Shown piece after piece: positions 23,680 to 60,957 of a DNA stretch of 64,000 nucleotides. A model generated the notes under the pieces. The model searched no databases. It saw only the letters and a program-made list of their open reading frames with translations, and was not told the DNA's origin. Origin of the DNA: Roseateles sp. (GTDB lineage: Bacteria; Pseudomonadota; Gammaproteobacteria; Burkholderiales; Burkholderiaceae_C); contig NZ_JASGKQ010000002.1 of assembly GCF_047654785.1 (NCBI RefSeq), positions 577,268 through 641,267 on the forward strand, in the 5' to 3' direction. The position numbers and the translations under genes are program-made. Every line of letters starts with the position of its first letter. Positions within the stretch are counted from its first letter, which is position 1.

Positions 23680-23707
23680 GGCCCCCGGGCCAGCGGGTAC
23701 GCTGGCC

Positions 23708-24759: not shown

Positions 24760-24785
24760 CGCGGCGGCGATCGGGCCTCAGGCCG

Positions 24786-25472: not shown

Positions 25473-25492
25473 GCCAGTGCTTCCATGAAACT

Positions 25493-25543: not shown

Positions 25544-25590
25544 AGACCCGCACGCGTCCAGCGCTGCGGGGGTGGGCGAGGGGCAGGCCG

Positions 25591-27416: not shown

Positions 27417-27419
27417 GGT

Positions 27420-29050: not shown

Positions 29051-29126
29051 TTGGCCTCCCGCCGGGCCGCCCCAAGGGAGGCCAGCCCCCGTGGGGGGCA
29101 GTGAACGAAGTGAACTTGGGGGCTCA

Positions 29127-30611: not shown

Positions 30612-30871
30612 GTCAAACCTTGGAAGCGGGTCTTCAGGGCTTGGCGTGCAGCCCGGTCATGGGGACGGGCAACGCGGACGGGAGCGCGTCAGGGCGCGCC
30701 AAGCGGCATCAGTCGGCAGCGGACGGGCGACGCCAGGGCCAGGCTCCCCGGTCGCTCGACCCCGTGATGTGCTTGCGCGTGATGAACATGGTGGCGGCGA
30801 GTGTATTTCAAGGCGCGCCATACTTCGGCCCGCGAAGGCGCAGTTATCGCGCCGCGAACACGGAGACGGAC

Positions 30872-31468: not shown

Positions 31469-31476
31469 CGCGGCGC

Positions 31477-32145
31477 TCAGAGCAGCGCCGGCAGGCCCTG
31501 GTCCAGGCGGTCCAGGTGCCGCAGCGCCGGCACGGCGAGGATGTCCTCGCCATGGTTGTAGCCATAGGTCACCAGCACCAGCGGGCAGCCGGCCGCGTGC
31601 GCGGCCTCGGCGTCGTTGCGCGAGTCGCCCACCATCCAGGTCCGTGCGGGCGGCGTGCCCAGGGCTTCGCAGGTCTTCAGCAGCGGCAGCGGGTCGGGCT
31701 TCTTGCGCGGGAAGCTGTCGCCGCCGAACACGTGGGCGAAATAGCCGTCCAGGCCGGTGCGCTTCAGCAGCTCGGCGGCCGGCGCGGCCGGCTTGTTGGT
31801 CAGCACGGCCAGCGGCAGGCCGTGCGCGCGCAGCCGGTCCAGCGCCGCGACGACGCCCGGGTACACCGCCGCGTGCGCGCCGTTCACGGCGGCGTAGTGC
31901 CGCTGGTACAGCGCCCAGGCGCGGTCGAACAGCGCCGCGTCGCCGCCGGCCTCGGCCAGCGTCGCGCGTACCAGGTGCTCGCCGCCGCGGCCGATGGTGT
32001 GCGCGACGAACTCGCGGCTCACGGCCGGCAGGCCGAGGTCGGCCAGCGTGAGGCCGAGCGCCGCGACGAAATCGCCCAGCGTGTCGACGAGCGTGCCGTC
32101 GAGGTCGAGGATGCAGGCCAGCGGCGGGGGTGGGAGGTGGGGCAT
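31477..32145 (-). CDS. gph: Phosphoglycolate phosphatase (HAD superfamily)
   Basis: DLDGTLVDT motif I, LTNK, GDSRNDAEAA. Located upstream of trpE, as is common in betaproteobacteria. Confidence 0.85.
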   Translation of the reverse strand: MPHLPPPPLACILDLDGTLVDTLGDFVAALGLTLADLGLPAVSREFVAHTIGRGGEHLVRATLAEAGGDAALFDRAWALYQRHYAAVNGAHAAVYPGVVAALDRLRAHGLPLAVLTNKPAAPAAELLKRTGLDGYFAHVFGGDSFPRKKPDPLPLLKTCEALGTPPARTWMVGDSRNDAEAAHAAGCPLVLVTYGYNHGEDILAVPALRHLDRLDQGLPALL

Positions 32146-38300: not shown

Positions 38301-38445
38301 GGGCCTGGCGGTGGTGGGCGGGCTGATCCTGTCGCAGGCGGTGACGCTCTACATCACGCCGGTCATCTACCTGGCGCTGGACCGCTTCAGCGGCTCGGGG
38401 CCGGACACGCGCGAGGTGGCCGAGTTCGCCAGCAAGGCGGCGTGA
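35344..38445 (+). CDS. RND family efflux transporter permease (AcrB/MdtB-like)
   Basis: 1033 aa with 12-TM RND architecture. MRLTEAFIRRPVMT N-terminus. ATGA overlap with the adaptor gene. Confidence 0.95.
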   Translation: MRLTEAFIRRPVMTVLLNLSLVIAGLAAWSRIPVAALPSYNTPVINVGASLPGASPETMASSVALPLEKQFSTIAGLQTISSTNTLGNTSLTLEFDPSRNIDDAAVDVQAALFRSLRALPAEMTSPPSYRKVNPADAPVLLVALTSPSIDLTELNDYAENLLSPGLSTVDGVAQVSIYGQKRYAVRIKVRTDLLNQRNITLEELQTAVRAANANTPVGVLDGSRQTLTIQANRQLRNAAEFGRTVVASRNGAPVYLRDVADVQDSVETSKTYSTYQGERSIVLAIQRQPDANTVQVVDKVKALLPRYAQQMPASIKMSTLNDRSLSIRESLHDVYLTLALTVGLVVLVIFIFLRRAVATLIPAASLPISLIGALTLLFALGYSLDNISLLGITLAVGLVVDDAIVMLENIVRHVEDGMKPFDAAVRGAREMAFTILSISVSLVAVLIPIFFMPGVIGLLFHEFAVVVGLAILVSAVVSLTLVPMLCSRLLKAGEHHEDGALGRLFERGFAATLGFYTRTLDLALRRRAWVLGVAVLSFVATVWFYATIPKGFFPEEDIGQIQASTEAAEDTSFAAMTVLQERVAAIVRNDPNVAALSSAVGGGPSGSASNTGRMFINLKPRGDRQAMPQVLEDLRKKLRAVPGIQVYLRPVQNLQLGGRQSKSRYQYTLQAVSAGELGTWATRLQEKLRGDARFRDITSDSQMRGLQASLVIDRERAALLGVDMQDLRNALYGAFGERQVSSIYAESNTYQVIMEAGDADRSSEAAFDKIYLRGSGGAQVPLTAFATVQRTLGPTAVNHQGQLQAVTISFNLAPNVPLGDATKQIAAFTQEIKLPANIITSYGGDAAVFQDSQGGQLLLIGLAVAVIYVLLGVLYESYIHPLTILAGLPSAAAGALLTLQLFGMELTIIATIGIVMLIGIVKKNAIMMIDFALDAQRHQGMAPAQAIREACILRFRPIMMTTLAALMGALPIALGLGAGAELRQPLGLAVVGGLILSQAVTLYITPVIYLALDRFSGSGPDTREVAEFASKAA

Positions 38446-40371: not shown

Positions 40372-40746
40372 ATGGCATCCCCTCGATTCACCTGCAGCGT
40401 CGCGGTGCAGGCGCTGCCCGAGCAGACCCACCTTGAACAAGGCCTGTACGCCTTCAGCTACACCGTCACCGTCGCCAACACCGGCGACGTGCTGGCCCAG
40501 CTGATCGGCCGGCACTGGGAGATCAGCGACGCGCGCGGCCAGGTGCAGGTGGTGGATGGCCTGGCCGTCGTGGGCCACCAGCCGGTGCTGGCGCCGGGCC
40601 AGAGCTTCCAGTACAGCTCGTGGGCGCAGATCGGCACGCCGCAGGGCAGCATGCGCGGCCGCTTCCTGTGCGTGACCGAGGGCTGCGAGATCTTCCACGC
40701 CGAGGTCGCCGAGTTCCTGCTCGCCGACAGCGCGTCCCTGCATTGA
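40372..40746 (+). CDS. apaG: ApaG protein
   Basis: Start at MASPRFTCSV. YAFSYTVTVANTG...GHQPVLAPGQSFQYSS is typical of the ApaG domain. Confidence 0.85.
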   Translation: MASPRFTCSVAVQALPEQTHLEQGLYAFSYTVTVANTGDVLAQLIGRHWEISDARGQVQVVDGLAVVGHQPVLAPGQSFQYSSWAQIGTPQGSMRGRFLCVTEGCEIFHAEVAEFLLADSASLH

Positions 40747-42725
40747 ACTGGGACCTCACCGCGCTGCTGAACGCCGCCGACCCGCAGGCGGCGCTGGCCG
40801 AGCGCAACCTGTGGCTGGTGCGGCTGCTGGAGTGGCTGCGCCATGCGCCGGGCGAGGACGCGGCCGCCGCGCCGCGTCCCGTGGTGCGGCCGGTCGTGCG
40901 GCTCAAGCACCTGCTGAACGTGCTGGAGCGCCACCCCGAGCACGCCTGGGCGTTCGCCGAGGTGATCGCCGGGGTGTGGAACGACGTGGACGCCGTCAGC
41001 CTGTTTGCCGAGGTGGGTTTCGCGCCGCGCATGGCGCTGTGGCACGAGTTCCTCGGCCGGCTGCGCCGCCGCCTGCTGCCGCACACCACCGACACGCGCG
41101 ACCTGGCCGAGCTGTTCGAGCTGCTGTTCGGCGACGAGACCGACGAGGACTGGATCGCCGCGATCGACGACGAGCTGCTCGGCCGGCTGAGCCTGCTGTT
41201 CCGCGCCGCGCCGGACGACGGCTGGCGCGTCGAGATGCGCGCCGCCGTCACCGTGCTGGTCAGCAGCGTGCACGCGGCCGGCCTGGCCGGGGCGCTGCGC
41301 GCGCGCATGGACGGCCCGCTGCTGCAGGACAAGCCCTTCCACCAGCTGCCCGCCGCGTGGGAGGCCGTGGAGCGCGTGCTGCAGCACCGCGGCGAGGACG
41401 GCGCCGGCGACGCGCTGGCCCCGGCGCTGCAATACCTGCGCGCGCTGCTGGACCGCTGCCGCGCCGCCGCGCTGACGGTGCCCGCGCACCTGGAGGTGCA
41501 CGGCGTGTCGGTGGACCTGATGTTCTCCGTAGAGCAGCTGACGGCGCGGCTGGATCGCATCGAGGCGCTGCTGTCCTGCCTGGTGTCGCCGCAGCCGCAG
41601 CGCGAGCTGCTGCGGCTGGTGGCCGGCCTGGTGCGCGTGGTGCACGAGCGGCGCAGCCTGCGCACGCTGTTCTCGCGGCACTACTCGCTGCTGGCGCGCA
41701 AGGTGGCCGAGCGCAGCGCCGAGACCGGCGAGCACTACATCACCCGCAACCGCGCCGAGTACCGCGACATGCTCAGGCGCGCGGCCGGCGGCGGCGCCGT
41801 CATCGCCGGCACCACCTTCGCCAAGTTCTTCATCGCGCTGCTGGGCTTCACGGCGTTCTGGGGCGGCTTCTGGGCCGGCGTGAACTACGCGCTGAGCTTC
41901 GTGCTCATCCACCTGCTGCACTGGACGGTGGCCACCAAGCAGCCGGCCATGACCGCGCCCGCGATGGCCGACAAGCTGCTCTACATCGACCGCGACGACG
42001 GCCTGCAGGGCTTCGTCGACGAGGTGACGCACCTGACGCGCTCGCAGGTGGCCGGCATCCTCGGCAACCTCGCGCTGGTCGCGCCGCTGGTGCTGGCGGT
42101 GCAGGGGCTGTGCTGGCTGGTCTTCGGCGCGCCGCTGGTGGGCGACAAGGAGGCGCACTACGTGCTGCACTCGCTGGACCTGTTCGGCCCGTCGCTGCTG
42201 TTCGCCGCGTTCACCGGCACGCTGCTGTTCGCGTCCAGCCTGGTCGCCGGCTGGGTGGAGAACTGGTTCGTGTTCCACCGGCTGGACAGCGCCATCGCCT
42301 GGAACCCGCGCATCGTCGCCATCTTCGGCCAGGCGCGCGCGCAGCGCTGGTCGCGCTGGTGGCGGGCCAACATCTCCGGCGTCGCCGCCAACACCAGCCT
42401 CGGGCTGATGCTGGGCCTGGCGCCCGCGCTGCTGGGCTTCCTGGGGCTGGGCCTGGAGGTGCGCCACGTCACGCTCGCCACCGGCCAGCTGGCAGCGGCC
42501 GTCGGCGCGCTGGGCGTGGGCGTGATGGCGACGTGGGCGTTCTGGTCCTGCGTGCTGTGCATCGCCGGCATCGGCGTGCTGAACGTGGGCGTGAGCTTCC
42601 TGTGCGCCTTCAAGGTCGCGCTGCGCTCGCGCGGCGTGCGGCTGGCGGACCGCCGGCGCGTCTACGCCGCGATCCGCGCGCGGCTGTGGCGCGAGCCGCT
42701 GAGCTTCCTGATCCCGCCGAAGTGA
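40743..42725 (+). CDS. Multi-TM protein of the family historically named site-specific recombinase (Gcr-like); function doubtful
   Basis: N-terminal soluble region plus several TM helices. No in-frame ATG lies near the 5' end. TTG 40743 overlaps the apaG stop. The start is uncertain. Confidence 0.65.
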   Translation: MNWDLTALLNAADPQAALAERNLWLVRLLEWLRHAPGEDAAAAPRPVVRPVVRLKHLLNVLERHPEHAWAFAEVIAGVWNDVDAVSLFAEVGFAPRMALWHEFLGRLRRRLLPHTTDTRDLAELFELLFGDETDEDWIAAIDDELLGRLSLLFRAAPDDGWRVEMRAAVTVLVSSVHAAGLAGALRARMDGPLLQDKPFHQLPAAWEAVERVLQHRGEDGAGDALAPALQYLRALLDRCRAAALTVPAHLEVHGVSVDLMFSVEQLTARLDRIEALLSCLVSPQPQRELLRLVAGLVRVVHERRSLRTLFSRHYSLLARKVAERSAETGEHYITRNRAEYRDMLRRAAGGGAVIAGTTFAKFFIALLGFTAFWGGFWAGVNYALSFVLIHLLHWTVATKQPAMTAPAMADKLLYIDRDDGLQGFVDEVTHLTRSQVAGILGNLALVAPLVLAVQGLCWLVFGAPLVGDKEAHYVLHSLDLFGPSLLFAAFTGTLLFASSLVAGWVENWFVFHRLDSAIAWNPRIVAIFGQARAQRWSRWWRANISGVAANTSLGLMLGLAPALLGFLGLGLEVRHVTLATGQLAAAVGALGVGVMATWAFWSCVLCIAGIGVLNVGVSFLCAFKVALRSRGVRLADRRRVYAAIRARLWREPLSFLIPPK

Positions 42726-45942: not shown

Positions 45943-46008
45943 TTGACAAGCCCGCCCATTCGCCTAGGATTGATCCGAATAATTGAACAATGTTCCACAT
46001 ATTGGAAC
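45943..46008 (+). promoter_or_regulatory. Promoter (TTGACA-N16-TAGGAT) plus two 17-bp palindromic operator boxes
   Basis: TTGACA at 45943-45948. TAGGAT at 45965-45970. Box A GATCCGAATAATTGAAC at 45972-45988. Box B GTTCCACATATTGGAAC at 45992-46008. The same module occurs inverted at 54528-54594. Confidence 0.65.
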
Positions 46009-46022
46009 ATCCAAGGATTCCC

Positions 46023-47663
46023 GTGGATCAACCCAAGCCTTCGGATTCGGAGCCCGGCGCCAGGCCTCCCGGCGGCCGGCACCCGCGCGCGCTGGCGCCG
46101 GCCAACCTGCTGCTGACGCTGGGCCTGAGCGTGTTCGGCGCCATCGTCGGCATGCAGATCATGGCGGCCGTGGGCATGACGCCGGCCACCTCCATCATCG
46201 GCGCGGTGGCGGCCATGGCGCTGGCGCGCATCCCGCTCGCGCAGTTTGCGGGCTTCCGCTCGCCGCATGCGCAGAACCTGGCGCAGACCAGCATCTCCTC
46301 GGCCACCTTCGGTGCGGCCAACAGCCTGTTCCTGCCCATCGGCATTCCCTACCTGTTCGGCCTGCCGGACCTGGTGCTGCCGATGCTGGTGGGCGTGAGC
46401 CTGGCGATGCTGCTGGACGCGTGGATGCTCTACCGCCTCTTCGACACCCCGGTGTTCCCGGCGCGCAACCCGTGGCCGCTGGGCATCGCCACCGCCGAGG
46501 CCATCAAGGCGGGGGACGCCGGCGGCCGGCAGGCGCGGCTGCTGCTCGGCGGCCTGGCCGTGGGCGCGGCCGGCGCGGCGCTGGCGGTCCCGATGTCGGC
46601 GCTGGGCATCGCGCTGCTGGGCGGGCTGGCGGCGATGGTCGCCTTCGCGGTCGGGCTGCTGGTGCGGGCCTATTCACAGGCCTGGTTCCAGGTGGACATC
46701 GCGGCGCTGTACATCCCGCACGGCGTGATGATCGGCGCCGGCCTGATGGCGCTGGTGCAGGTTTCTCGGCTGGTGCTGAGTCCATCCCGCGCCCCGCAGC
46801 CGGCCGGCCCCGCGTCCGCGCGCACGGCCGGCGCCCCGGGGCAGCGCGCCGGCCGGACGCTGCGCCGGGGCGCGCTCGCCTACGGCGGCCTGACGCTGCT
46901 GCTGGCGCTGGGCACCGGCCTCCACCAGGACATGGCGCCGGGCATGCTGGCGCTGTTCGTCGTCTATGCCGCGTTCTCGGCCTTCGTGCACGAGATCATC
47001 GTCGGCATCTCGGCCATGCACGCGGGCTGGTTCCCGGCGTTCGCGGTGGCGCTGATCACGCTGCTGCTCGGCATCCTGCTGGGCCTGCCCGCGTCGGCGC
47101 TGGTGGTGCTGGCGGGCTTCACGGCCGCCACCGGCCCGGCCTTCGCCGACATGGGCTACGACCTGAAGACCGGCTACCTGCTGCGCGGCGAGGGGGCCGA
47201 CCCGGCCTTCGAACGCGACGGCCGCGCCCAGCAGGCCATCGCGGCGCTGCTGGGCTTCGGCGTGGCCATCGCCGTGGTGGCGCTGTCCTATCCGGCCTTG
47301 TTCGCCGCGCATCAGTTCGCGCCGATCAACGCGGCCTACGTGGCGGCCATCAAGGCCGGCATTTCCTCCGAGACGGCGCGCACGCTGGCGCTGTGGGCCG
47401 TGCCCGGCGCGCTGCTGCAGGCGCTGGGCGGCTCGCGCCGCCAGCTGGGCGTGCTGCTGGCCACCGGGCTGCTGATCGGCGGCGTCTGGGCCGGCTGGAT
47501 GGTGGCCCTGGGCCTGGTCGCGCGGCTGGCGGCCCGGGCCTGGCTGGGCGCCGGGGCCAGCGCGCGCATCGAGGTGTTCGCCGGCGGCGTCATCGCCGGC
47601 GACGCGCTCTACAGCTTCTTCCACGGCTCCAGCATGAGCATCCACCAGCGGGGTTCCAAGTGA
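46023..47663 (+). CDS. OPT-superfamily (oligopeptide transporter-like) membrane protein
   Basis: Many TM helices. NLAQTSISSATFGAANSLFLPIG resembles bacterial OPT proteins. I prefer GTG 46023 (AAGGA 5 nt upstream), because the listed ATG 45990 lies inside operator box B. Confidence 0.7.
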   Translation: MDQPKPSDSEPGARPPGGRHPRALAPANLLLTLGLSVFGAIVGMQIMAAVGMTPATSIIGAVAAMALARIPLAQFAGFRSPHAQNLAQTSISSATFGAANSLFLPIGIPYLFGLPDLVLPMLVGVSLAMLLDAWMLYRLFDTPVFPARNPWPLGIATAEAIKAGDAGGRQARLLLGGLAVGAAGAALAVPMSALGIALLGGLAAMVAFAVGLLVRAYSQAWFQVDIAALYIPHGVMIGAGLMALVQVSRLVLSPSRAPQPAGPASARTAGAPGQRAGRTLRRGALAYGGLTLLLALGTGLHQDMAPGMLALFVVYAAFSAFVHEIIVGISAMHAGWFPAFAVALITLLLGILLGLPASALVVLAGFTAATGPAFADMGYDLKTGYLLRGEGADPAFERDGRAQQAIAALLGFGVAIAVVALSYPALFAAHQFAPINAAYVAAIKAGISSETARTLALWAVPGALLQALGGSRRQLGVLLATGLLIGGVWAGWMVALGLVARLAARAWLGAGASARIEVFAGGVIAGDALYSFFHGSSMSIHQRGSK

Positions 47664-48715
47664 AACGCAAACTGACGACTGACGACGCGATCGCCGCGGT
47701 GTGGGGCGGGGCCATCCTGGGCGGCGGCGGCGGCGGCTTCGTGGCGCCGGGCGAGCAGGCCGCGCGGCTGGCCATGGAGATGGGCACGCCCGAGCTGTGG
47801 AGCCTGGACGAGCTGCCGCCCGACGCGCCGACGGCCACCGTCGCGCTGGTCGGGGCGCCCGGCGCGCGCAACCCGCTGTTGGTGCCGGCCTACCTGCTGC
47901 GCAGCCTGGAACTGCTGCAGCAGCAGCTCCCGGCGGCGCTGGCGGGCTTCTACGCCTGCGAGAACGGCGCCGAGGCGACGCTGAACGGCTGGATGCAGTC
48001 GGCCGCCACCGGGCGGCCGGTGATCGACCTGGCCTGCAACTGCCGCGCCCACCCGTCCAGCGTGATGGGCGCGATGGGGCTGCACCGCGAGGCCGGCTAC
48101 GTGGGCCTGCACGCCTATGCCGGCGGGCGCCCGGCGCAGTATGTCGAGGGCGTCGTGCGCGGCAGCCTGGACGGCATTTCCAGCATCGTGCGCCATGCGT
48201 CGGTGCAGGCCGGCGGCGCGGTGGCCGTGGCGCGCAATCCGGTGCCCCTGGATTACGCCGCGCGGCACGGGTCGCCCGGCGCGGTCAGCCTGGCCATCGA
48301 CCTCGGCCGGGCCTTCCTGGACGGCGGCCTCGAGGCCGCGATGCGGATGCTGGGCGCCAGCGTGGTGGCCGAGGGGACGGTGCGGGACTGCCGCTGCGAG
48401 CAGCGGGCCGGCCTGGACCATGGCCGGGTGCTGCTGGACGACGCGGCGCGGACCGAGCTGCTGCTGATCAACGAGTACATGCTGCTGGAGCAGCGCGGCG
48501 AGCGCGTGGCCGCCTTCCCGGACCTGCTGACCACCTTCGGCGCCGACGGCCTGCCGGTGGCCTCGGCCGACGTGAAGGTGGGCGACCGCCTGCGCGTGCT
48601 GCGCGCGCCGGCCGCGCGGCTGCCGCTGGCCGCGACGATGTTCATGCCCGAGCTGTACGCGCATCTCGAAGCCATGCTGGGCAAGCCGTTCGCGCCGCAG
48701 CCCGCGAGCGCCTGA
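47660..48715 (+). CDS. DUF917 family protein, copy 1
   Basis: GTG start overlaps the transporter stop (GTGA). AVWGGAILGGGGGGF and RAHPSSVMGAMGLHRE signatures. Paralog of 53450-54508. Confidence 0.85.
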   Translation: MKRKLTTDDAIAAVWGGAILGGGGGGFVAPGEQAARLAMEMGTPELWSLDELPPDAPTATVALVGAPGARNPLLVPAYLLRSLELLQQQLPAALAGFYACENGAEATLNGWMQSAATGRPVIDLACNCRAHPSSVMGAMGLHREAGYVGLHAYAGGRPAQYVEGVVRGSLDGISSIVRHASVQAGGAVAVARNPVPLDYAARHGSPGAVSLAIDLGRAFLDGGLEAAMRMLGASVVAEGTVRDCRCEQRAGLDHGRVLLDDAARTELLLINEYMLLEQRGERVAAFPDLLTTFGADGLPVASADVKVGDRLRVLRAPAARLPLAATMFMPELYAHLEAMLGKPFAPQPASA

Positions 48716-48776
48716 CGCCGCCGCAGGGCGGGACTCCTATGATCCCAGCCCCGCAAAAGCCCGAAGGAGCCGCCTC

Positions 48777-49541
48777 TTGAGCACCCTTGCGAACGCCATG
48801 GACGTGCTGAAGCTGATCGTGCGTCTGCGCCGCGACATCACGGTGACCGATCTGGTGACCGCGCTCGGCTACCCGAAGAGCTCGGCATCGCGCACGCTGA
48901 GCCAGATGGCCGCGCATGGTTTCCTGGAGCGCGACGCGGTGACCAAGGCCTACCGGCCCGGCCTGCTGGTGGTGGAGGCGGGCCATCAGTTCCGCGTCGG
49001 CGGCAGCGTCCTGCCGCTGCTCGAAGAGGCGCTGGAGCAGTTGGTGGGGGCCACCGGCTTCACCGGCTACCTCGGCGTGCTGCGGGGGGCCGAGATCCTG
49101 GTCGTGCAGATGCGCGCGGGCGCCCAGCCGCTGCAGGTCTACACGCCGCCGGGCACCAGCGGCCCGGCCGCCTTCACGTCCATGGGCCGGGCGCTGCTCG
49201 CGCGCCTGAGCGACGCGGAGGTGCTGGCGCTGGTCGGCCGCAAGTTCGACCGCCCGCCGGGCAGCGCGCCGAAGACGCCGCGGGAACTGCTCGACCGCCT
49301 GGCGCAGACGCGCCGCGACGGCTGGAACGAGTCGCGCGGCGAGTCGCTGGCCGAGGTCTACGGCATCGCGTCGTCGGTGCGGGACCCCAGCACCGGCGAG
49401 GCCTACGGCATCGGCCTGGCCATCCCGCCGGGGGAGGGCATCGACGCGCTGTTCGAGCGCTGCGTCGTGCGGGTGCGCGATGCCGCCAGCGGGGTCGGTC
49501 GCCGCATCGGCGATCCGTACTGGCTGCAGATGGGGGGCTGA
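48777..49541 (+). CDS. IclR-family transcriptional regulator
   Basis: GAAGGAG sits 7 nt before TTG 48777 (alternative ATG at 48798). wHTH is ITVTDLVTALGYPKSSASRTLSQM. IclR effector domain present. Confidence 0.9.
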   Translation: MSTLANAMDVLKLIVRLRRDITVTDLVTALGYPKSSASRTLSQMAAHGFLERDAVTKAYRPGLLVVEAGHQFRVGGSVLPLLEEALEQLVGATGFTGYLGVLRGAEILVVQMRAGAQPLQVYTPPGTSGPAAFTSMGRALLARLSDAEVLALVGRKFDRPPGSAPKTPRELLDRLAQTRRDGWNESRGESLAEVYGIASSVRDPSTGEAYGIGLAIPPGEGIDALFERCVVRVRDAASGVGRRIGDPYWLQMGG

Positions 49542-49565
49542 GAACAGGTTCCAAGGGATGGCGGA

Positions 49566-51269
49566 TCAGTCCAGCACGACCTCGGTGCGCACCCGGCCGG
49601 CGCGCGCCGCGTGGGCGCTGAGCGCCAGGCGCGTGCCCCGGGGTGCGCGCACGATCCACTCGCCGACGGCGCGGTCGGCGGTCACCTCGCGCACGGGGGC
49701 CGCGGCATGCTGGGTCTGCCTGGGGGCGTGGCCGTCCAGCTGCGGCCCCTCCATGCGCGGCTTGCCGCTGACCAGGCCGACGGCCGGGTCGTCCGCCGGC
49801 AGGTGGATTTGGAAGACCACGCCCCGCACGATCTTGCGCTCCAGCGCGCGCTGCATCACGTAGGTCGGCAGGTAGCCGCCGTTGGCCACCGCCAGCCGGA
49901 CGCGCCAGGTGTCCGCACCCAGCGCCTGCACCTCGGCGCGCAGCAGCTCCAGCCGGGGCAGGGACAGCGCGACCTGGTTCAGCCAGGCGGGAAAGCGCGC
50001 CACCTCGGGCTCGCGCAGGTGCGGCGGCGGGTTGCGCCGGAAGTTCATGCGGTCCCAGCCGCCGATCTCCACCGCGCCGAGCTGGGGATGCTGGAAGGGC
50101 CGCCAGTCCACGTGGGCCTGGCCGCCGCACTGCTCGTCGCTCCAGCGGAGCAGCTTGAGGTCGTCTTCCACCGGGTGGTCGCGGAACCAGTCCATCCACT
50201 TGTACCCCTGGATGCCGGCCTCGCGGTTGGGCGACCACAGCTCGACGACCCAGCACAGCGCGCCGAGGTGCTCGTAGAGCCAGTCCTGGCCGCCGCTGAG
50301 CGTTTCCTTCGGGTGGTACTTGAAGTCGTGCCAGATGCTCAGCGCCGGGTAGCCGGTGGCCTGGCTGCCGAGTTCCGAGAAGCGCTGGTAGCGCCACAGG
50401 TCCTCGGCGGCCATGTCCTCGTCCTTGCCGCCGCTGAGCGGCCGCAGGATCACGCCGCTGTGCGTGTGGAAGCTGATGGCGGCGCCGATGTTGGGGTGGG
50501 CGATGACGAAGTCCACCATCGCGCGCACCTCGGGCTCGCTGGTCGGGTACGGGCCGGCGCCGGGCTGCTGGTAGTCCTGCCGCCAGCCGGCGGGGAAGTT
50601 GCGGTTGAGGTCCAGGCCTTCCTTGTCCTTGTTGACGGTGAGGGTCAGGCCGTCGTAGTCCTTGACGAAGCCCTCGGGCATGAGCCGGTAGTACTCGCCG
50701 CCGAATTCGCCAGGCTGGCGCGCCACCAGCAGGCGCGGCTCGGCCGGGTGCTTCCTGTAGCCGCCGTGGGGGTCGGGGACGCGCATGTGCAGGATGCGGC
50801 CGTCGCCGTCCACGTCCTCGACGCTGAGGCCGTCGACCGGATCCTCGTCGAAGGGGTAGGCGCGCGTGCTCGACCGGATGTGGCGCGGCCGGTCGGCCAG
50901 CGCCAGCTCCGCGCCGTCGGGGTTGAGGCGCGGCACCAGGTAGACGGCGCGCGTGTCCAGCAGCTGCGTGACCTGCGGGTCGCTGCCGTGGCCGCTGACC
51001 AGCCGGTGCAGGTAGTACAGGCAGGCCGTCGAGGCGGTCAGCTCGGCGGCGTGGATGTTGCCGTCCACCCAGAAGGCGGGCTTGTCCTCGTCCGCGCCGG
51101 TGGCGGTGTTGGTCAGCACGACGACCCAGATGTCGCGGCCTTCGTGGCTGCGCCCCATCGAACGGACGCTGACCAGCCCCGGCCGCGCCTCGGCATAGGC
51201 GAACAGCAGGGCGGTCAGCGGCTCGTGGCGCAGGAACTCGTCGAAGCGGGGGGTGGGCAGCGGGGGCAT
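49566..51269 (-). CDS. M14-family zinc carboxypeptidase, no signal peptide
   Basis: SHEGRDIWVVVLTN...FWVDGNIHAAELTAS (HxxE zinc motif). 567 aa. Confidence 0.85.
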   Translation of the reverse strand: MPPLPTPRFDEFLRHEPLTALLFAYAEARPGLVSVRSMGRSHEGRDIWVVVLTNTATGADEDKPAFWVDGNIHAAELTASTACLYYLHRLVSGHGSDPQVTQLLDTRAVYLVPRLNPDGAELALADRPRHIRSSTRAYPFDEDPVDGLSVEDVDGDGRILHMRVPDPHGGYRKHPAEPRLLVARQPGEFGGEYYRLMPEGFVKDYDGLTLTVNKDKEGLDLNRNFPAGWRQDYQQPGAGPYPTSEPEVRAMVDFVIAHPNIGAAISFHTHSGVILRPLSGGKDEDMAAEDLWRYQRFSELGSQATGYPALSIWHDFKYHPKETLSGGQDWLYEHLGALCWVVELWSPNREAGIQGYKWMDWFRDHPVEDDLKLLRWSDEQCGGQAHVDWRPFQHPQLGAVEIGGWDRMNFRRNPPPHLREPEVARFPAWLNQVALSLPRLELLRAEVQALGADTWRVRLAVANGGYLPTYVMQRALERKIVRGVVFQIHLPADDPAVGLVSGKPRMEGPQLDGHAPRQTQHAAAPVREVTADRAVGEWIVRAPRGTRLALSAHAARAGRVRTEVVLD

Positions 51270-51284
51270 GGCGTCATCCGGCCT

Positions 51285-53432
51285 TCACATCTTGACACTG
51301 AGTTCGATGCCCACCACCCGCGGCGTGCCCCGGGAGCCGATCGCGTCGATGGGCGCGCCCCAGCCGTTGTAGGTCTTGCCGTTGACGTCGGCGTAGTAGA
51401 AGCGGTTGCCGAGGTTGCGGCCGTAGAGCGTGGCGGACCAGCGGTCCCGGGCGTCGCGCACGCCCAGCCGTGCGTTCAGCAGCGTCACGCCGTCGGAGAC
51501 GAGCACGTTGTCCGGGTGCCAGTACTTGCGGCTGCGCACCTCGACGTCCAGGCGCGCCTGCCCCGCCAGCCCCTGGCCCAGCGCGGTGCTGTACTGTGCG
51601 CCGAAGGTGGCCTTCCACGGCGAGTTCTTGGGCGTGTGGTTGCCCACGGTGGCGGGTTCCGCCGCGTTGGCCTTGATGCGGCTGCCGGCCAGGCCCAGGC
51701 CGCCGTCGAACTCCAGCCCCTGCGCGGCCAGGTAGCGGAAGTCCAGGTCCAGGCCCTTGATCGTCACCTTGTCGATGTTGCCGATGCGGCCGGACAACAC
51801 CGGGCCGGGCAGCACCTTGATGTAGAAGTACTGGAAGTCGGTGGAGTGCGAGTAGAAAGCCGCGGCATTCAGGCTCAGCCGCCCGTCCAGGAAGCTGCCC
51901 TTGTAGCCCGCTTCGAGGTTGCGCAGGTTCTCGGCCTTGAAGACCGGGTTGTCCGCCGCCGTCGTGTTGAAGCCGCCCGAGCGGAAGCCGGTGCTGTAGG
52001 TGGCGTAGCCCAGGGCCTCGGCGCCGAGCTTGCGGGTCAGCGTCAGCTTGGGCTGCCAGGCGTCGAAGCCGGCGTCGACCGTGGTGTTGCCGTTCAACAG
52101 GTCGATGCGCTGGCGGGCATCGTGGTCGTAGCGCAGCCCGGCGGCCAGCTTGGTGAGCGGGTCGAGGTCGTACTCGATCTGGCCGAACACGGCCGAAGCC
52201 TTGTTCTTGAAGTCGTTGCGGCGCGTGGTGGGCACGCTCTCGTACTGCCAGGGCAGGCCGGTCGTGTCGGCGTAGGACTTCTCGGTCCAGTCCAGGTCCT
52301 TGGCCAGGTAGTACAGGCCGGCGATCCAGCGCAGCGGCCGGTCGCCGGGCGAGGTCAGGCGGATTTCCTGGCTGGTCATGCGGATGCGCCGGTCCTTGCC
52401 CTGGCCGCGGCTGAGGGGGCCGGCGATGCCGCCCAGCGGGTCGTCGGGGTTGGAGAAGTCGCCGTCGCTGGCGAATTTCTCGGTGAGCCGGGTGTGGTTG
52501 GTGATCGCGGTCAGCGTGCCCAGCCGGGTCTCCACATCGGCCTTGAAGGTGAACTCGTCCGTGCCGCCGACGGACTGGCCCAGCACGTTCGAGGTCGGCG
52601 CGTAGCGCGCGTTCAGGTTGCCGTCGCGGATCAGGTTGTCCCAACTGGCGCCGGCCTGGAAGCGGTTGGTGCTGGCGCGGAAGTCCAGCTGCACGTCTTC
52701 GGACGCCAGCACCATGAGCTTGGCGCGCAATGTGTTGTCGTGGCCGATGGGGTCGGCCTTGGCATTGCGGTAGCTGTTGGTGACGAGGCCGTGGGAGGTC
52801 TTGCTCTGGCCGACGATGCGGAACAGCACCTTGTCCTTCACCAGCGCGCCGCTGACGCCGCCGTTCAGGTCCACCGTGTTGCCGGTGCTGTAGTCCAGCT
52901 TGGCGAAGCCCTGCAGCTCGTTGGCGGGCTGCTTGGTGTCGATCACGATCGCGCCGCCGACGGCGTTGCGCCCGTACAGCGAGCCCTGCGGGCCCTTCAG
53001 CACCTCGATGCGGGCCACGTCGACCAGGTTCATCTTGAGCTGCTTCTGGTCGTTCTGCGGCACGCCGTCCACCACCACGGCCACCGGCGAATCGGCGTTG
53101 TTGATCTCCGAGACGCCGCGGATCACGACGAAGGAGTTGCCGTAGGTGAAGGACTGGTCGAAGGACACGTTGGGCGTCAGGTCCATGAAGTCCTGCGTGC
53201 TCTTGATGCCGGCGTCCTCGATCTGCCGGGCGCTGAAGGCCTTCACCGCGACCGGCACGCTCTGCAGCATCTCCTTGCGGCCCTGCGAGGTCACGACGAC
53301 CTGCTCCAGCTTGTTGCTGCGGGCCTCGGTGGCCGGGGGCGGCGCGCCGGCGGCGGTGTCCTGGGCGCTGGCGCCCGCGCTCATCAGCGCGATCGCGCTG
53401 GCCAGGCAATGGCGTCGAAAACTCGTGCTCAT
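51285..53432 (-). CDS. TonB-dependent outer-membrane receptor
   Basis: Start at MSTSFRRHCLASAIALMSAGASAQ (signal peptide). TonB box-like LEQVVVTS. Plug motif IEVLKGPQGSLYGRNAVGGAI. Beta-barrel repeats. Confidence 0.9.
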   Translation of the reverse strand: MSTSFRRHCLASAIALMSAGASAQDTAAGAPPPATEARSNKLEQVVVTSQGRKEMLQSVPVAVKAFSARQIEDAGIKSTQDFMDLTPNVSFDQSFTYGNSFVVIRGVSEINNADSPVAVVVDGVPQNDQKQLKMNLVDVARIEVLKGPQGSLYGRNAVGGAIVIDTKQPANELQGFAKLDYSTGNTVDLNGGVSGALVKDKVLFRIVGQSKTSHGLVTNSYRNAKADPIGHDNTLRAKLMVLASEDVQLDFRASTNRFQAGASWDNLIRDGNLNARYAPTSNVLGQSVGGTDEFTFKADVETRLGTLTAITNHTRLTEKFASDGDFSNPDDPLGGIAGPLSRGQGKDRRIRMTSQEIRLTSPGDRPLRWIAGLYYLAKDLDWTEKSYADTTGLPWQYESVPTTRRNDFKNKASAVFGQIEYDLDPLTKLAAGLRYDHDARQRIDLLNGNTTVDAGFDAWQPKLTLTRKLGAEALGYATYSTGFRSGGFNTTAADNPVFKAENLRNLEAGYKGSFLDGRLSLNAAAFYSHSTDFQYFYIKVLPGPVLSGRIGNIDKVTIKGLDLDFRYLAAQGLEFDGGLGLAGSRIKANAAEPATVGNHTPKNSPWKATFGAQYSTALGQGLAGQARLDVEVRSRKYWHPDNVLVSDGVTLLNARLGVRDARDRWSATLYGRNLGNRFYYADVNGKTYNGWGAPIDAIGSRGTPRVVGIELSVKM

Positions 53433-53449
53433 GATGACTCCATGTCGCT

Positions 53450-54508
53450 TCAGGGATGGATGGATGGGGCCGGGGCGAAGCGCTGGCCCAGCGTGGCTTC
53501 GAGCGGTGCGTACAGCTCCGCCATGAACATCGTGGCCGCCAGCGGCAGGCGGGCGGCCGGCGCATGCAGCACGCGCAGGCGGTCGCCCACGCGCACGTCG
53601 GCGGACACGACGGGCCGCCCCTCGGCATCGAAAGTGGTCAGCAGGTCCGGGAAGGCGGCCATGCGCTCGCCGTGCTGCTCCAGCAGCATGTATTCGTTGA
53701 TCAGCGGCAGCCGCGTCCGGGCGTCGTCGTCGAGCACGACGACGCCCACGTCCAGCCCCGCCACCTGCTCGCAGCGGTAGCTGGCCACGGTGCCCTCGGC
53801 GCGGACGCTGCCGCCGAGGAAGCGCGCCGCGGCGTCGAGGCCGCCGTCGAGGTAGGCCCGGCCCAGGTCGATGGCGAAGCTGATCGCACCGGGCGCGCCA
53901 TGCCGCGCGGCGTGGCCGATGGTGACCGGGTTGCGGGCCACCGCGACCGCGCCGCCGGCCTGCACCGACGCATGCCGCGCGATGCTGGCCACGCCGTCCA
54001 TCGCGCCGCGCGCGACGCCCTCCAGGTAGCGCTGTGGCGCGCCGCCGGCGAAGGCCTGCAGCGCGACGTAGCCGGACTCCCGGTGCAGGCCCATCGCGCC
54101 CATCACGCTGGACGGATGGGCGCGGCCGTTGCACGCGAAATCCAGCATCGGGAGGCCCAGCGCCGCGGCCTGGCCCCAGCCGTTGACCGTGGTCTCGGCA
54201 CCGTTCTCGTTGGTGTGCAGCGCGGCGAGCCGGCCGGGCAGCTGCCGCTGCAGCAGCTCGATGGCCCGCATCCGGTGCTCCGGCGGCACCTTGGGGTCCG
54301 GCGACCCCGGCGCGCCGACCAGGGCGACCGTGGCGGTCAGCGCGTCGGCGTCGAACTCGTCCACGCTCCACAACGCCACGCTGCCGGCCTGCAGCGCCTG
54401 CCGCGCCGCGAGTTCCCCGGCCGCGACGAAGCCGCCGCCGCCGCCGCCCAGAATGGCGCCGCCCCACACGGCGGCCTGCACATCGTCTTCCGTCAGCCTG
54501 CGCTTCAT
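53450..54508 (-). CDS. DUF917 family protein, copy 2
   Basis: Start at MKRRLTEDD, by alignment with copy 1 (VKRKLTTDD). The listed upstream Met at 54553 lies inside operator box A. Confidence 0.85.
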   Translation of the reverse strand: MKRRLTEDDVQAAVWGGAILGGGGGGFVAAGELAARQALQAGSVALWSVDEFDADALTATVALVGAPGSPDPKVPPEHRMRAIELLQRQLPGRLAALHTNENGAETTVNGWGQAAALGLPMLDFACNGRAHPSSVMGAMGLHRESGYVALQAFAGGAPQRYLEGVARGAMDGVASIARHASVQAGGAVAVARNPVTIGHAARHGAPGAISFAIDLGRAYLDGGLDAAARFLGGSVRAEGTVASYRCEQVAGLDVGVVVLDDDARTRLPLINEYMLLEQHGERMAAFPDLLTTFDAEGRPVVSADVRVGDRLRVLHAPAARLPLAATMFMAELYAPLEATLGQRFAPAPSIHP

Positions 54509-54527
54509 CGCATCCACCCGTTCAAGA

Positions 54528-54594
54528 GTTCCAAATATTGGAACAAAGTCCAATAATTTGGATCTGATGCTAGGACGGTGCTCCGGCCTGTCAA
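54528..54594 (-). promoter_or_regulatory. Promoter (TTGACA-N16-TAGCAT) plus two 17-bp palindromic operator boxes
   Basis: Read on the minus strand: TTGACA is the reverse complement of 54589-54594, and TAGCAT of 54567-54572. Box A GATCCAAATTATTGGAC is at 54548-54564. Box B GTTCCAATATTTGGAAC is at 54528-54544. Confidence 0.65.
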
Positions 54595-56745: not shown

Positions 56746-56781
56746 GGCGCGGATTTTAGCCTGCGGCCCGCCAGGCCTCAA
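56746..56781 (-). promoter_or_regulatory. Promoter-like TTGAGG-N17-TAAAAT followed by CCGCGCC
   Basis: TAAAAT is the reverse complement of 56753-56758 and contains the TAA stop of the upstream gene. TTGAGG is the reverse complement of 56776-56781. The -10-like hexamer starts about 60 nt upstream of the 54-aa ORF start (motif ends 50 nt upstream). Confidence 0.45.
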
Positions 56782-58867
56782 AGTCCGGCCGGTCCATGGG
56801 CCTGGCCACCAGGTAGCCCTGCACCAGGTCGCAGCCGCAGGCCTGGACGGCAGCCAGCTCGCGCTCGTTCTCCACGCCCTCGGCCGTCACGGTCAGGCCC
56901 AGGCCCTGGCCCACGCCGACGATGGACTTCAGCAGCGCCTGCCGGCGCGGGTCGCCGTCCACGTCCTGCACGAAGCTGCGGTCGATCTTCAGCTCGTCCA
57001 CCGGCAGGTGCTGCAGGTAGGCGAGCGAGGACTGGCCGGTGCCGAAGTCGTCGATGGCCAGGCTGACGCCCCAGCTCCTGAGCGCGTGCAGCACGGAGAT
57101 GGGGTCGGTGCCGCTGGCCATCAGGCCGGTCTCGGTCACCTCCAGCTGCAGCTGGCCGGGGTCCACGCGGTACTGGACCAGCAGCGCGGCCAGGCGGGCG
57201 GGCAGGGTCTGGTCCTGGATGTCCAGCGTCGAGATGTTGACGGCGATGGACAGCGGCTCGCGGCCGGCGGCGGCCCAGTCGGCCAGCGTGCGCACGGCGC
57301 GGGCCAGCATCCAGTCGGTGACCTGGCGGATGCGGCCGCTGCGTTCGGCGAAGGGGATGAACTCGGCCGGCGGCAGCCAGCCGCGCTGCGGGTGCCGCCA
57401 GCGCACCAGCGCCTCGGCGCCGGTGATGCGGCCGGTCCTCAGGCAGCGCTTGGGCTGCAGGAACTGGCGCAGCTGGTCCTGCTGGACGGCGGTGGCCAGG
57501 TCGGACAGCAGGCTCAGGTGCAGCGCCCGCGCGGCCTCGGCGTCGGCGCTGTAGACGGCCACCGGCTGGCGCAGCCGCTTGGCCTCGAACATCGCCTGCT
57601 CGGCGCGGCGCAGCAGGGTCTCGGTGTTGGCCGCGTGCTCGGGCCAGTGGGCCACGCCGAGCGACACGGACAGGTCCAGCGCCTGGCCCTGCCAGGAGAG
57701 CTTGTGCTCCACCTCCTCGCGCAGCTGCGCGGCGAGCACGGTGCCGTGGTCCAGCCGCAGCACCGGCGCCAGCGCGGCGAAGGTGCCGCCGGCCAGCCGT
57801 CCGTAGGCGGCCACGCCCTCGAACAGCGTCCGGATCTTGGCGGCCGCGCCCTGCAGCAGCGCGTCGCCGGCCTCGAAGCCCAGCACGCCGTTGACGGCCT
57901 TCAGCCGGTCCACGTCGATGCAGATCAGCACGGCCAGCTGCTCGCGCTCGGGCAGGTTGGCCAGCAGGCGGTCGCCGTCGGCGATGAAGCGGGCGCGCTG
58001 CGGCAGGCCGGTCAGCAGGTCCACGTCGGCGAGCTGGCGCAGCTCGGCCTCGCGCTCGCCCACGGCGGCGGCCATGGTGTTCATCGCGGAGGCCATGTGG
58101 CCCACCTCGTCGGCGGCGTCCACGTCGATGCGGTGGCCGTACTGGCCCTGGGCGATGCGCTCGGCGCCGGCCTCGGCGCGCTTCAGCGGCGCGGTGATGG
58201 AGCGCGTGACGCCCACCGCCAGCAGCACGCCGCCGACCAGCGCGGACAGGCACAGCGCCAGCACGCCGGCCCGGTCGGCGTCGATCTGGTCGCGCAGCTC
58301 GCGCGCCATCGCGGTGCCGGCGCGGTCCTCGCTGGTGGCCAGCTGGTGGATGGCGCCGACGAGCTGCGACAGCGCCGCCTCGGTGTCGCTGCCCAGCAGC
58401 GCGCGGGCGGCCTGGAACTCGTCGCCTTCGATCAGGTCGCGCACCGCGATGTAGCTGGCGCGGTACGCGGCCAGGCGCTCGCGCACGTCGCCCAGGCGCT
58501 CGCTGCGCGGCCCCGGCGGCAGCACCAGGGACAGGCGTCGCATGGCGTCGTCCAGCCGCTCGCTGGCGGCGGCGATGTCGCCGTAGGCGGCCACGCGCAG
58601 CCCGGCGTCGGGGCTCATCAGCACCAGCAGCTTGCGGGTCGCGGCCTCGGCGCTGCGGTTGATCTCGTTGACCGAGTGCCGGACGACGGCCTGCTCGTCG
58701 ACGATGCGGTTCAGCGCCTCGGACAGCCCGGCGAGCCGGTACATGGACAGCGCCGCCAGCGCCAGCAGCAGCAACAGCAGCAGCGCGAACGCCAGGCCCA
58801 GCCGGGTGCGGATGCGCAGCCGCCGGGACAGGCGGCTCAGCGGCCGGGCCGAAGGCGTCACGGCCAC
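56756..58867 (-). CDS. Membrane sensor: 4-helix-bundle/HAMP + degenerate GGDEF + EAL phosphodiesterase
   Basis: Two TM segments flank a periplasmic helical region, followed by HAMP. The GGDEF position reads RLAGGTFAA, which is degenerate. EAL motifs EALVRWRHP and DDFGTGQSSL are intact. Confidence 0.85.
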   Translation of the reverse strand: MAVTPSARPLSRLSRRLRIRTRLGLAFALLLLLLLALAALSMYRLAGLSEALNRIVDEQAVVRHSVNEINRSAEAATRKLLVLMSPDAGLRVAAYGDIAAASERLDDAMRRLSLVLPPGPRSERLGDVRERLAAYRASYIAVRDLIEGDEFQAARALLGSDTEAALSQLVGAIHQLATSEDRAGTAMARELRDQIDADRAGVLALCLSALVGGVLLAVGVTRSITAPLKRAEAGAERIAQGQYGHRIDVDAADEVGHMASAMNTMAAAVGEREAELRQLADVDLLTGLPQRARFIADGDRLLANLPEREQLAVLICIDVDRLKAVNGVLGFEAGDALLQGAAAKIRTLFEGVAAYGRLAGGTFAALAPVLRLDHGTVLAAQLREEVEHKLSWQGQALDLSVSLGVAHWPEHAANTETLLRRAEQAMFEAKRLRQPVAVYSADAEAARALHLSLLSDLATAVQQDQLRQFLQPKRCLRTGRITGAEALVRWRHPQRGWLPPAEFIPFAERSGRIRQVTDWMLARAVRTLADWAAAGREPLSIAVNISTLDIQDQTLPARLAALLVQYRVDPGQLQLEVTETGLMASGTDPISVLHALRSWGVSLAIDDFGTGQSSLAYLQHLPVDELKIDRSFVQDVDGDPRRQALLKSIVGVGQGLGLTVTAEGVENERELAAVQACGCDLVQGYLVARPMDRPDFEAWRAAG

Positions 58868-59967: not shown

Positions 59968-60861
59968 TTAGGGCGGCGCGGGCCGGGCCGGCCGCCGCAA
60001 AAGCCGGGGCCCGAACAGGTTGATCGCCAGACCGGCCAGCACCAGCGCCGCGGCCGCCAGCTTCCACGGCGGCAGCGGCTCGCCCAGCAGCAGGCTGGCC
60101 GAGCCCATGCCGAACACCGGCACCAGCAGCGCCATCGGCACGATGCGCCCGGCCGGGTGGCGGGCCAGCAGCCAGCTCCAGGCGCCGTAGCCGAACAGCG
60201 TGTTGGCGAAGGACTGCCACAGCACCGCCGCCCAGGTGCCGGCGTCGGCCGCGGCCAGCCCGGCGGCGATGCGCGGCGGCCCGTCGATCAGCAGCGCCAG
60301 CGCCAGCAGCGGCGGCACGGCGAAGGCGCTGCTCCAGACCACGTAGGCCAGCATGTCGATGCGGCCGGCGCGCTGCGTCAGCAGGTTGGCGCAGGCCCAC
60401 GAGAACGCGGCGGCCAGCACCATGGCCAGGCCCAGCGGCGTGGTCGTGCCGTCGGTGTGCGCCACGATGACGGCCACGCCGCCGGCCGCCAGCGCCAGGC
60501 CCAGCCAGGTGGCGCCGGCCACGCGCTCGCCGCGCAGCCGCACGGCCAGCAGCAGCGTGAAGAACACCTGCGTCTGCACCACCAGCGAGGCCAGCCCCGG
60601 CGAGATCTGGCTGCGCATGGCCAGGTACAGCAGGCCGAACTGGCCCACGCCGATCAGCACGCCGTAGCCGGCGAGGTTGCGCCAGTCCACCTGCGGGCGG
60701 CGCAGGAAGAGGCAGGCCGGCAGCAGCGCGAAGCTGAAGCGCAGCACGGCCAGCGTCATCGGCGGCAGCGTGTGCAGCGCGTACTTGATGACGACGAAGT
60801 TGCTGCCCCAGACCGCGACGACGGCGAGGGCGAGCAGCAGGTGGCGCAGCGGCAGGGCCAT
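59968..60861 (-). CDS. EamA/DMT-family transporter
   Basis: Ten predicted TM helices. The WGSNFVVIKYAL N-terminal EamA pattern is duplicated. Confidence 0.85.
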   Translation of the reverse strand: MALPLRHLLLALAVVAVWGSNFVVIKYALHTLPPMTLAVLRFSFALLPACLFLRRPQVDWRNLAGYGVLIGVGQFGLLYLAMRSQISPGLASLVVQTQVFFTLLLAVRLRGERVAGATWLGLALAAGGVAVIVAHTDGTTTPLGLAMVLAAAFSWACANLLTQRAGRIDMLAYVVWSSAFAVPPLLALALLIDGPPRIAAGLAAADAGTWAAVLWQSFANTLFGYGAWSWLLARHPAGRIVPMALLVPVFGMGSASLLLGEPLPPWKLAAAALVLAGLAINLFGPRLLRRPARPAPP

Positions 60862-60957
60862 CGGGCGTGCGGGGGGCGGTGGGGCGGGGAGCCGACTATG
60901 CCAGCGGCGGCGCGTTCACCCGTGCCCCTGCGGCAGGCGGAAGGGGGCGCGCGGCGC

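Follow-up and report, generated by a model that had tools for sequence, protein, structure and literature searches.

A two-arm locus under predicted IclR control

We analyzed a stretch of 64,000 nucleotides from Roseateles sp. (assembly GCF_047654785.1, contig NZ_JASGKQ010000002.1, positions 577,268 to 641,267; hereafter the window) and focused on a six-gene locus at window positions 45943-54594 that combines a single-copy IclR-family regulator with transport genes, a peptidase gene and two copies of a DUF917 gene. The plus-strand arm (arm A) encodes an OPT-family inner-membrane transporter (46023-47663, in a reading frame open from 45990; Pfam OPT), the first DUF917 protein (DUF917-A, 47660-48715; Pfam S-Me-THD_N and S-Me-THD_C) and the IclR regulator (48777-49541; TTG start, ribosome-binding site GAAGGAG; HTH_IclR and IclR_C). 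The minus-strand arm (arm B) starts from the opposite end with the second S-Me-THD-like protein (DUF917-B, 53450-54508; same two domains), followed by a TonB-dependent outer-membrane receptor (TBDR, 51285-53432; 715 residues with signal peptide, plug and barrel) and, as the last gene, a cytoplasmic M14 zinc carboxypeptidase (49566-51269; 567 residues; Peptidase_M14). The first-pass annotation of this DNA had described both arms in this order, each behind its own promoter and operator, and every detail that was re-checked in the sequence and coordinates was recovered. The OPT stop and the DUF917-A start overlap in GTGA, with the GTG start lying within ...AAGTGA, and 61 nt separate DUF917-A from iclR. 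In arm B the gaps are 17 nt between DUF917-B and the TBDR and 15 nt between the TBDR and M14, and the M14 N-terminus shows no signal-peptide features, in line with the description of this enzyme as signal-less. The arrangement is real rather than an assembly artefact, because an independent metagenome contig (L059) repeats the junction in which OPT, DUF917-A and iclR run toward M14 on the other strand.

Between positions 45700 and 54800 only two sigma-70-like promoters were found (0.4 expected by chance), both at the outer ends of the arms and both coinciding exactly with the boundaries originally given to the locus, 45943 and 54594. They share a common layout, namely TTGACA, 16 nt, TAG(G/C)AT and then two AT-rich palindromic boxes in tandem that start 3 nt past the -10 hexamer. 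The promoter of arm A (45943-45970, plus strand, TTGACA-16 nt-TAGGAT) can be aligned with those in front of OPT in related genomes, and that of arm B (54567-54594, minus strand, TTGACA-16 nt-TAGCAT) was recovered by promoter scan and alignment. In arm A, box 1 is the imperfect palindrome ATCCGAATAATTGAAC (45973-45988), the upstream box, and box 2 is GTTCCACATATTGGAAC (45992-46008). In arm B, box 2 reads GTTCCAAATATTGGAAC on the plus strand (54528-54544) and box 1, identified by promoter alignment, reads ATCCAAATTATTGGAC on the minus strand (54548-54563). Box 2 is a 17-bp palindrome, GTTCCA-N5-TGGAAC, with two matches in the window (45992 and 54528) against 0.03 expected, and the box 1 consensus, ..TCCA.ATATT...A.., is held at fixed spacing across loci.

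The operator also bears on the gene starts. ATG 45990 falls inside it, while GTG 46023 is preceded by AAGGA and yields a protein of 546 residues like the annotated orthologues; GTG 46023 is probably the true OPT start, which corrects ATG 45990. The apparent N-termini MFHILEH (OPT from 45990) and DFVPIFGT (DUF917-B from TTG 54553) are the translated operator palindrome. Matches by tblastn that begin at residue 2 of the apparent OPT in distant genera arise because the operator DNA is conserved, not the protein.

A conserved IclR-OPT-DUF917 cassette and its predicted operator

A species scan with one genome per species recovered 51 loci carrying this DUF917 subfamily at 55-71% identity. An IclR gene, normally divergent in transcription, was present in all 51, and an OPT gene, 61-73% identical to that of the window, lay immediately upstream of DUF917 in 50. 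The window IclR is 50-67% identical to the IclR encoded at every related locus. These loci span Variovorax, Streptomyces, Microbacterium, Propioniciclava, Enterobacteriaceae and Sedimentitalea, and the trio of IclR, OPT and DUF917 is a deeply conserved cassette across Proteobacteria and Actinobacteria, common among soil bacteria. The six genes had first been put forward as one combination, and this part of the proposal has to be narrowed: OPT and IclR do accompany DUF917, but the TBDR does so in only 2/51 loci and M14 in 1/51, and the unit that is kept is the trio. A search of E. coli genomes returned no cassette, and a search for close plasmid copies returned one only.

Among 54 related loci, which belong to several phyla, 50 have the box 2 palindrome just upstream of OPT with at most one mismatch. 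Away from OPT promoters there were only a handful of matches in 1.1 Mb, some of them ahead of an AroM gene, and a search at stand-alone M14 loci and at HyuA-DUF917 operons found none. We regard the palindrome as a strong phylogenetic footprint of the predicted binding site of the co-conserved IclR. The idea that a single repressor governs both arms fits well with this picture, as the same two-box operator precedes both promoters and appears to have been kept together with the trio across phyla. Since the boxes begin 3 nt after the -10 element, IclR would act by repression. The iclR gene is probably co-transcribed with arm A and for that reason would be autoregulated. As a side observation, three relatives carry an extra palindrome with one mismatch just upstream of AroM (L014:6651, L034:6544 and L061:4670). 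Where the palindrome precedes it, AroM would form a separately controlled part of the same regulon.

The regulator itself has the N-terminal and C-terminal domains of its family in the usual order (HTH_IclR, 45 bits; IclR effector domain, 65.2 bits) and falls far below all named NCBIfam equivalogs, the best being BhcR with 85 bits against a cut-off of 350. Among the candidate identities that we rejected is the allantoin pathway: the score of the IclR falls far short of the AllR cut-off, an NCS1 permease is absent, and the M20 peptidase of relatives is not of the allantoate-amidohydrolase type.

Accessory genes of the cassette were more variable. An AroM-family gene is present in 29/51 loci, an M20 peptidase directly downstream of DUF917 in 25/51 and a PF01177 Asp/Glu/hydantoin racemase in 7/51, and 10/51 loci consist of the bare trio. 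The best NCBIfam matches of the M20 proteins are the dipeptidase models PRK07907 and PRK08201, with no carbamoylase model among the matches. A classical hydantoinase/carbamoylase pathway was rejected on this basis and on the absence of a hydantoinase. Searching the window by tblastn with HyuA-like, PF01177 racemase, NCS1, AroM and M20 queries returned nothing. In two loci with unusual spacing (L013 and L015) the extra open reading frames are unrelated genes. Outer-membrane parts joined the cassette three times independently, as a TBDR in Roseateles/Pelomonas, another TBDR in Stenotrophomonas and a porin in Cupriavidus. The Stenotrophomonas mori cassette has an unrelated TBDR of 924 residues and a PvdQ-like acylase, and in Cupriavidus the operator stands in front of the porin. 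A haloarchaeal DUF917 with 40% identity is encoded on a Salinigranum rubrum plasmid (NZ_CP026310.1, 145345-160271), where its operon partners are a peptide ABC transporter, DUF1177, AroM, an aminopeptidase, an Asp/Glu racemase and an AstE/aspartoacylase-family protein. This operon is the same theme with other transport and amidase parts. Taken as gene content, the accessory genes suggest the breakdown of peptides or cyclic amides as the probable role. In a published survey, genes for DUF917, AroM, PF01177, OPT and peptidases were enriched in the vicinity of cyclodipeptide-oxidase genes without an accompanying cyclodipeptide synthase; the survey gave no function to those clusters (PMC11055893; 10.1101/2023.09.25.559410).

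Two DUF917 paralogues in a desulfurase-like branch

DUF917-A and DUF917-B share 71% identity in a gap-free alignment of 349 residues; the whole-length alignment reported earlier, including each shared string quoted from it, was reproduced. At the DNA level the two genes form an inverted repeat of 1,037 nt (47661-48697 versus 53471-54507) with 77% identity. What was DUF917 is now named S-Me-THD-like in Pfam, with an N-terminal (S-Me-THD_N, PF06032) and a C-terminal (S-Me-THD_C, PF20906) domain, and both domains occur in order over the whole protein (53.8 and 70 bits in copy A, 68.4 and 77.2 bits in copy B, cut-off 27). The initial view that the family lacks a firmly established function has to be revised, given that Pfam and NCBIfam name characterized thiohydantoin-desulfurase relatives. 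NCBIfam holds two such equivalog models, NF058529 (thiohydantoin desulfurase) and NF058532 (S-methyl thiohydantoin desulfurase).

This raises the question of whether the locus serves ergothioneine or thiohydantoin catabolism, with both DUF917 proteins acting as genuine (S-methyl)thiohydantoin desulfurases that release H2S or methanethiol. The two models are the only named relatives, and both copies match them from end to end (E values 1e-60 to 1e-72). However, copy A reaches 236.4 and 204.5 bits and copy B 242.2 and 227.2 bits on NF058529 and NF058532, respectively (204-242 bits overall), where the equivalog cut-offs are 440 and 450. Nor do the partners agree: the conserved ones are OPT, AroM and the M20 dipeptidase rather than ergothioneine genes. 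Neither the window flanks nor about 10 Pfam-annotated neighborhoods contain an ergothionase or other ammonia-lyase, a thiourocanate hydratase or other urocanase-like hydratase, an amidohydrolase-type hydantoinase or a carbamoyl-glutamate hydrolase. We consider this identity highly improbable. The same scores (236-242 bits against 440) and the same missing partner genes speak against the possibility, foreseen in the first-pass annotation, that these proteins are enzymes of a known unrelated pathway. The DUF917 branch linked to HyuA scores far lower on the thiohydantoin desulfurase model (86-108 bits). Because the window copies span the whole model, score below the cut-off and leave the HyuA-linked branch far behind, we place them in the desulfurase-like branch that has no HyuA-like partner, apparently without being those desulfurases themselves.

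Structure-based prediction returned little. A single-sequence search of the PDB with DUF917 gave no match, and an AlphaFold2 model (predicted local distance difference test, pLDDT, 92) submitted to Foldseek, together with a profile search of the PDB, matched only 2O3I, the one solved structure of the family and a protein of unknown function.

The characterized DUF917 relatives hydrolyze the C2 substituent of (S-methyl)thiohydantoins without ATP. By analogy, the DUF917 step at this locus would be a hydrolysis on a ring that derives from an amino acid or peptide and is of the (thio)hydantoin, imidazolone or diketopiperazine kind.

The two copies have diverged unequally. In a neighbor-joining tree, copy A and its 85%-identical orthologue from another sample (P0004) are sister to copy B, and R. 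aquatilis lies outside. Substitutions common to copy A and P0004 hit columns with at least 90% conservation (N100C, T106A, G128C, Q151H, A205S and P335H), with N100C in the NENG motif and G128C in the CNGRAHP motif, and copy B keeps the ancestral residues. Divergence at such near-invariant positions suggests a fixed change of specificity in copy A. In Pelomonas KK5 a single operon runs from promoter/operator through OPT, DUF917, TBDR and IclR to M14. In one parsimonious scenario, inverted duplication of such an operon followed by complementary losses would have produced the two-arm layout. One copy would have lost TBDR and M14 and the other OPT and IclR, which would yield the gene order of the window and leave a promoter fused directly to DUF917-B.

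The TonB-dependent receptor and the OPT transporter

The receptor has a signal peptide in its N-terminus (MSTSFRRHCLASAIALMSAGASAQ), a TonB-box-like motif, LEQVVVTS, and clear plug and barrel domains (74.1 and 123.3 bits), and it scores below every substrate-specific NCBIfam cut-off. Within the cassettes it is 73% identical to the TBDR of R. aquatilis and of Pelomonas KK5. A metagenome scan with this protein recovered 17 relatives with 41-55% identity, of which 15 could be used. Twelve of these 15 adjoin a HyuA-like and/or a DUF917 gene, usually followed by an NCS1 permease and sometimes by a racemase, and the DUF917 proteins next to them are only 26-30% identical to the window copies. The recurrent operon in these metagenomes (L066-L079, e.g. 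L077:8001-14835) comprises a TonB receptor, a HyuA-like ATPase (PF05378/PF01968), a canonical DUF917, in some cases a PF01177 racemase, and NCS1; a HyuB partner for its HyuA-like protein is missing. Although the cassette seldom includes the TBDR, this addition is well supported, and its link to DUF917 is real. A place for this receptor in the system, as first proposed, is thereby supported at the level of the receptor clade (12/15 loci), but not as a general property of the cassette (2/51). A common substrate class can be argued because one TBDR clade pairs with two DUF917 subfamilies and two inner-membrane carriers.

The transporter scores 67.5 bits on the OPT profile (cut-off 25.8), the best stretch covering profile positions 360-618. 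Its 546 residues are close to the averages of 529-553 residues given for subclusters 4E-4G in a 2011 review, according to which no prokaryotic OPT had been biochemically characterized (PMC3061005). We infer the direction of transport, and take the protein to be an uptake carrier.

An alternative use of the same proteins would be metallophore or siderophore acquisition, in which the TBDR and an OPT of the yellow-stripe-like division import a metal chelate that DUF917 and M14 then degrade, freeing the metal. Prokaryotic OPTs do cluster with the iron-siderophore division (PMC3061005). The best subfamily match of the TBDR is "TonB-dependent siderophore receptor" (136 bits, below the cut-off of 223), and one relative carries a PvdQ-like acylase. 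However, control would run through the co-conserved IclR operator rather than a recognizable metal regulator. In addition, the cassette is equally common in Gram-positives, there with only a racemase-like gene and a dipeptidase, and neither the annotated neighborhoods nor the window flanks contain biosynthesis or reductase genes. Metal acquisition therefore seems most unlikely to us.

The M14 carboxypeptidase

The M14 protein is a clear family member (154 bits) in which H73, E76, N222/R223, H268 and the catalytic glutamate E343 are invariant among 35 homologues. Alignment with carboxypeptidase A2 supports the zinc ligands and the NR pair for the substrate carboxylate (H73, E76, N222/R223 and H268), and the Tyr248 equivalent is uncertain. 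An AlphaFold model from a shallow alignment (pLDDT 52) was not used. Some M14 homologues carry the JGI label "MpaA", which is automatic and looks like over-annotation, the protein being more than twice the size of MpaA.

Whether M14 belongs to the system is uncertain. It could be a resident housekeeping gene that is read through from arm B, leaving IclR, OPT, the two DUF917 proteins and the TBDR as the unit. Orthologues with 74-81% identity are common throughout Roseateles, Paucibacter and Pelomonas, normally elsewhere in the genome. In three of these genomes or contigs (L055, Paucibacter KCTC 42545; L056, Roseateles DAIF2; L063, metagenome) M14 stands in another conserved block without cassette genes or operator, composed of one or more large TonB receptors, FAD_binding_3, GATase_4, in some cases a LytTR two-component system, and M14, with Abhydrolase_2 nearby. 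Moreover, in a tree built to look for a single recruitment event, the two M14 copies linked to the cassette do not cluster together. On the other hand, in the window M14 is outside this usual block, 15 nt behind the TBDR on the same strand and downstream of an operator-bearing promoter, and its adjacency to the cassette is kept on three contigs in two gene orders (the window, L059 and Pelomonas KK5). A role for M14 is best argued from the peptidase (M20) that most relatives hold in the equivalent slot. On balance, we view a bystander M14 as possible, though not the likelier case. The peptide-trimming step that the first-pass annotation assigned to M14 is borne out insofar as a peptidase after DUF917 is usual (M20, 25/51), but the link to M14 in particular is weak.

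Proposed function of the locus

We propose, with a probability of roughly 0.55, that the locus is a form of the widespread three-gene cassette that has been rearranged and enlarged in this lineage and is dedicated to inducible uptake and hydrolysis of a peptide-derived ring compound. In this scheme one IclR would bind the tandem palindromic boxes at both promoters and keep both arms repressed until an inducer binds. The TBDR would bring a scarce compound across the outer membrane and the OPT symporter would move it into the cytoplasm, where the DUF917 enzymes would hydrolyze the cyclic amide or heterocyclic part of the molecule, likely a 5-substituted (thio)hydantoin-like, imidazolone-like or diketopiperazine-like ring. 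M14, in the slot where most relatives hold an M20 dipeptidase, may then cut the linear product to amino acids. The whole route would amount to nutrient scavenging of a peptide-derived compound. The dedicated scavenging pathway initially suggested for a peptide-like compound thus holds in outline, with its repressor, two-membrane uptake, DUF917 and amide-cleaving steps, but its conserved unit shrinks to the trio and M14 is a weak member.

Several points weigh against this proposal. IclR-family proteins may act as activators too. The characterized DUF917 relatives replace a ring substituent and do not open the ring, which makes a ring-opening DUF917 an extrapolation, and the structure adds nothing on the chemistry because the function of 2O3I is itself unknown. 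M14 accompanies a single cassette in the species scan and is otherwise a common resident of these genera, and a dedicated peptidase is not essential, as 10/51 loci carry the trio alone. Prokaryotic OPTs fall in the "iron-siderophore" phylogenetic division (PMC3061005). Finally, the substrate class proposed for this DUF917 subfamily is a prediction.

Genomic surroundings

The genes flanking the locus look unrelated to the cassette. On one side there are GST-like and DUF427 genes and a PF10136 "site-specific recombinase" family protein (40620-42725, plus strand; 728 bits) about 3 kb off the locus, and on the other an FAD-dependent protein and a GGDEF/EAL protein (56756-58867, minus strand; 4HB_MCP-HAMP-GGDEF-EAL). 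The latter, an AcrB-type RND efflux pump (35095-38445, plus strand) and an EamA transporter (59968-60915, minus strand) look like ordinary neighbors. The G+C content of the window is very high (~70-76%), with 70-72% at 14000-32000 against 75-76% in the first 14 kb and ~75% at 32-34 kb.

Relation to known systems

The locus would fall among the inducible catabolic uptake operons. The closest enzymes are the ergothioneine-catabolic desulfurases (NF058529 and NF058532), which belong to the same two-domain family, align over their full length, fall in the same HyuA-independent branch and presumably share a cofactor-light hydrolysis on an amino-acid-derived five-membered ring. In contrast, the window copies score at about half the equivalog cut-off, and their partners are OPT and IclR in the window and AroM and a peptidase in relatives.

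The hyu operons and the metagenomic L066-L079 operons, in which a TBDR accompanies HyuA-like, DUF917, racemase and NCS1 genes, share a related TBDR, a DUF917 enzyme and, with the relatives of the cassette, a racemase-type helper. They follow the same logic of import, ring chemistry and amide cleavage. Unlike them, the window has no HyuA-like ATPase, NCS1 permease, amidohydrolase hydantoinase or carbamoylase, and its carrier is an OPT. In L066-L079 the DUF917 is a distant one (26-30% identity) and the IclR operator is absent. The cyclodipeptide-oxidase clusters contain the same accessory families, read there as hydantoin- or peptide-related metabolism, whereas neither the window nor the cassette loci examined contain a cyclodipeptide oxidase. 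That survey, which included no functional tests, defined neither the IclR-OPT-DUF917 cassette nor its operator (PMC11055893).

As to control, the catabolic repressors AllR (allantoin use), PcaR/PobR and KdgR are the same kind of two-domain regulator, and the predicted palindromic, promoter-overlapping operators, the adjacent target genes and the probable autoregulation also agree, but the operator sequence of the window and its effector are new. In E. coli, recycling of the murein tripeptide uses the M14 amidase MpaA, the epimerase YcjG and the M20 dipeptidase PepD. The analogy lies in treating an unusual peptide, once imported, with an M14-type enzyme of the cytoplasm, an epimerase or racemase and an M20 dipeptidase, yet that route has nothing that corresponds to the transporter, the regulator or the DUF917 enzyme at the center of the present system.

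Significance

If the substrate turns out to be ordinary, the locus would merely be another inducible nutrient-uptake operon. A more far-reaching idea, speculative and in our view unlikely, is that the cassette with its AroM and dipeptidase additions is the missing catabolic route for a common class of peptide-derived rings that has no enzymes assigned to it, with diketopiperazines (cyclic dipeptides) or imidazolone- or hydantoin-type amino-acid adducts as candidates. Were such a route for ring compounds confirmed, DUF917 would be a new cofactor-independent ring hydrolase, a substrate would be defined for a bacterial OPT for the first time, each of the two paralogues in Roseateles would be adapted to its own member of a pair of related substrates, and the long-orphan AroM family would gain a function.

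The Roseateles locus adds independent evidence that one outer-membrane receptor clade may serve the substrates of DUF917 enzymes. It also offers what would be a clean case of an operon duplicated in inverted orientation and divided between the copies, with one repressor kept. More broadly, the core cassette extends from Streptomyces to Enterobacteriaceae with a nearly unchanged operator, and its loci hold three families whose function has seen little or no experimental work, namely this DUF917 branch, AroM and prokaryotic OPT (the last as of the 2011 review). The conserved pair of IclR and operator could be a ready-made biosensor for the inducer, and the inducer would in turn reveal both the substrate and the chemistry of DUF917.

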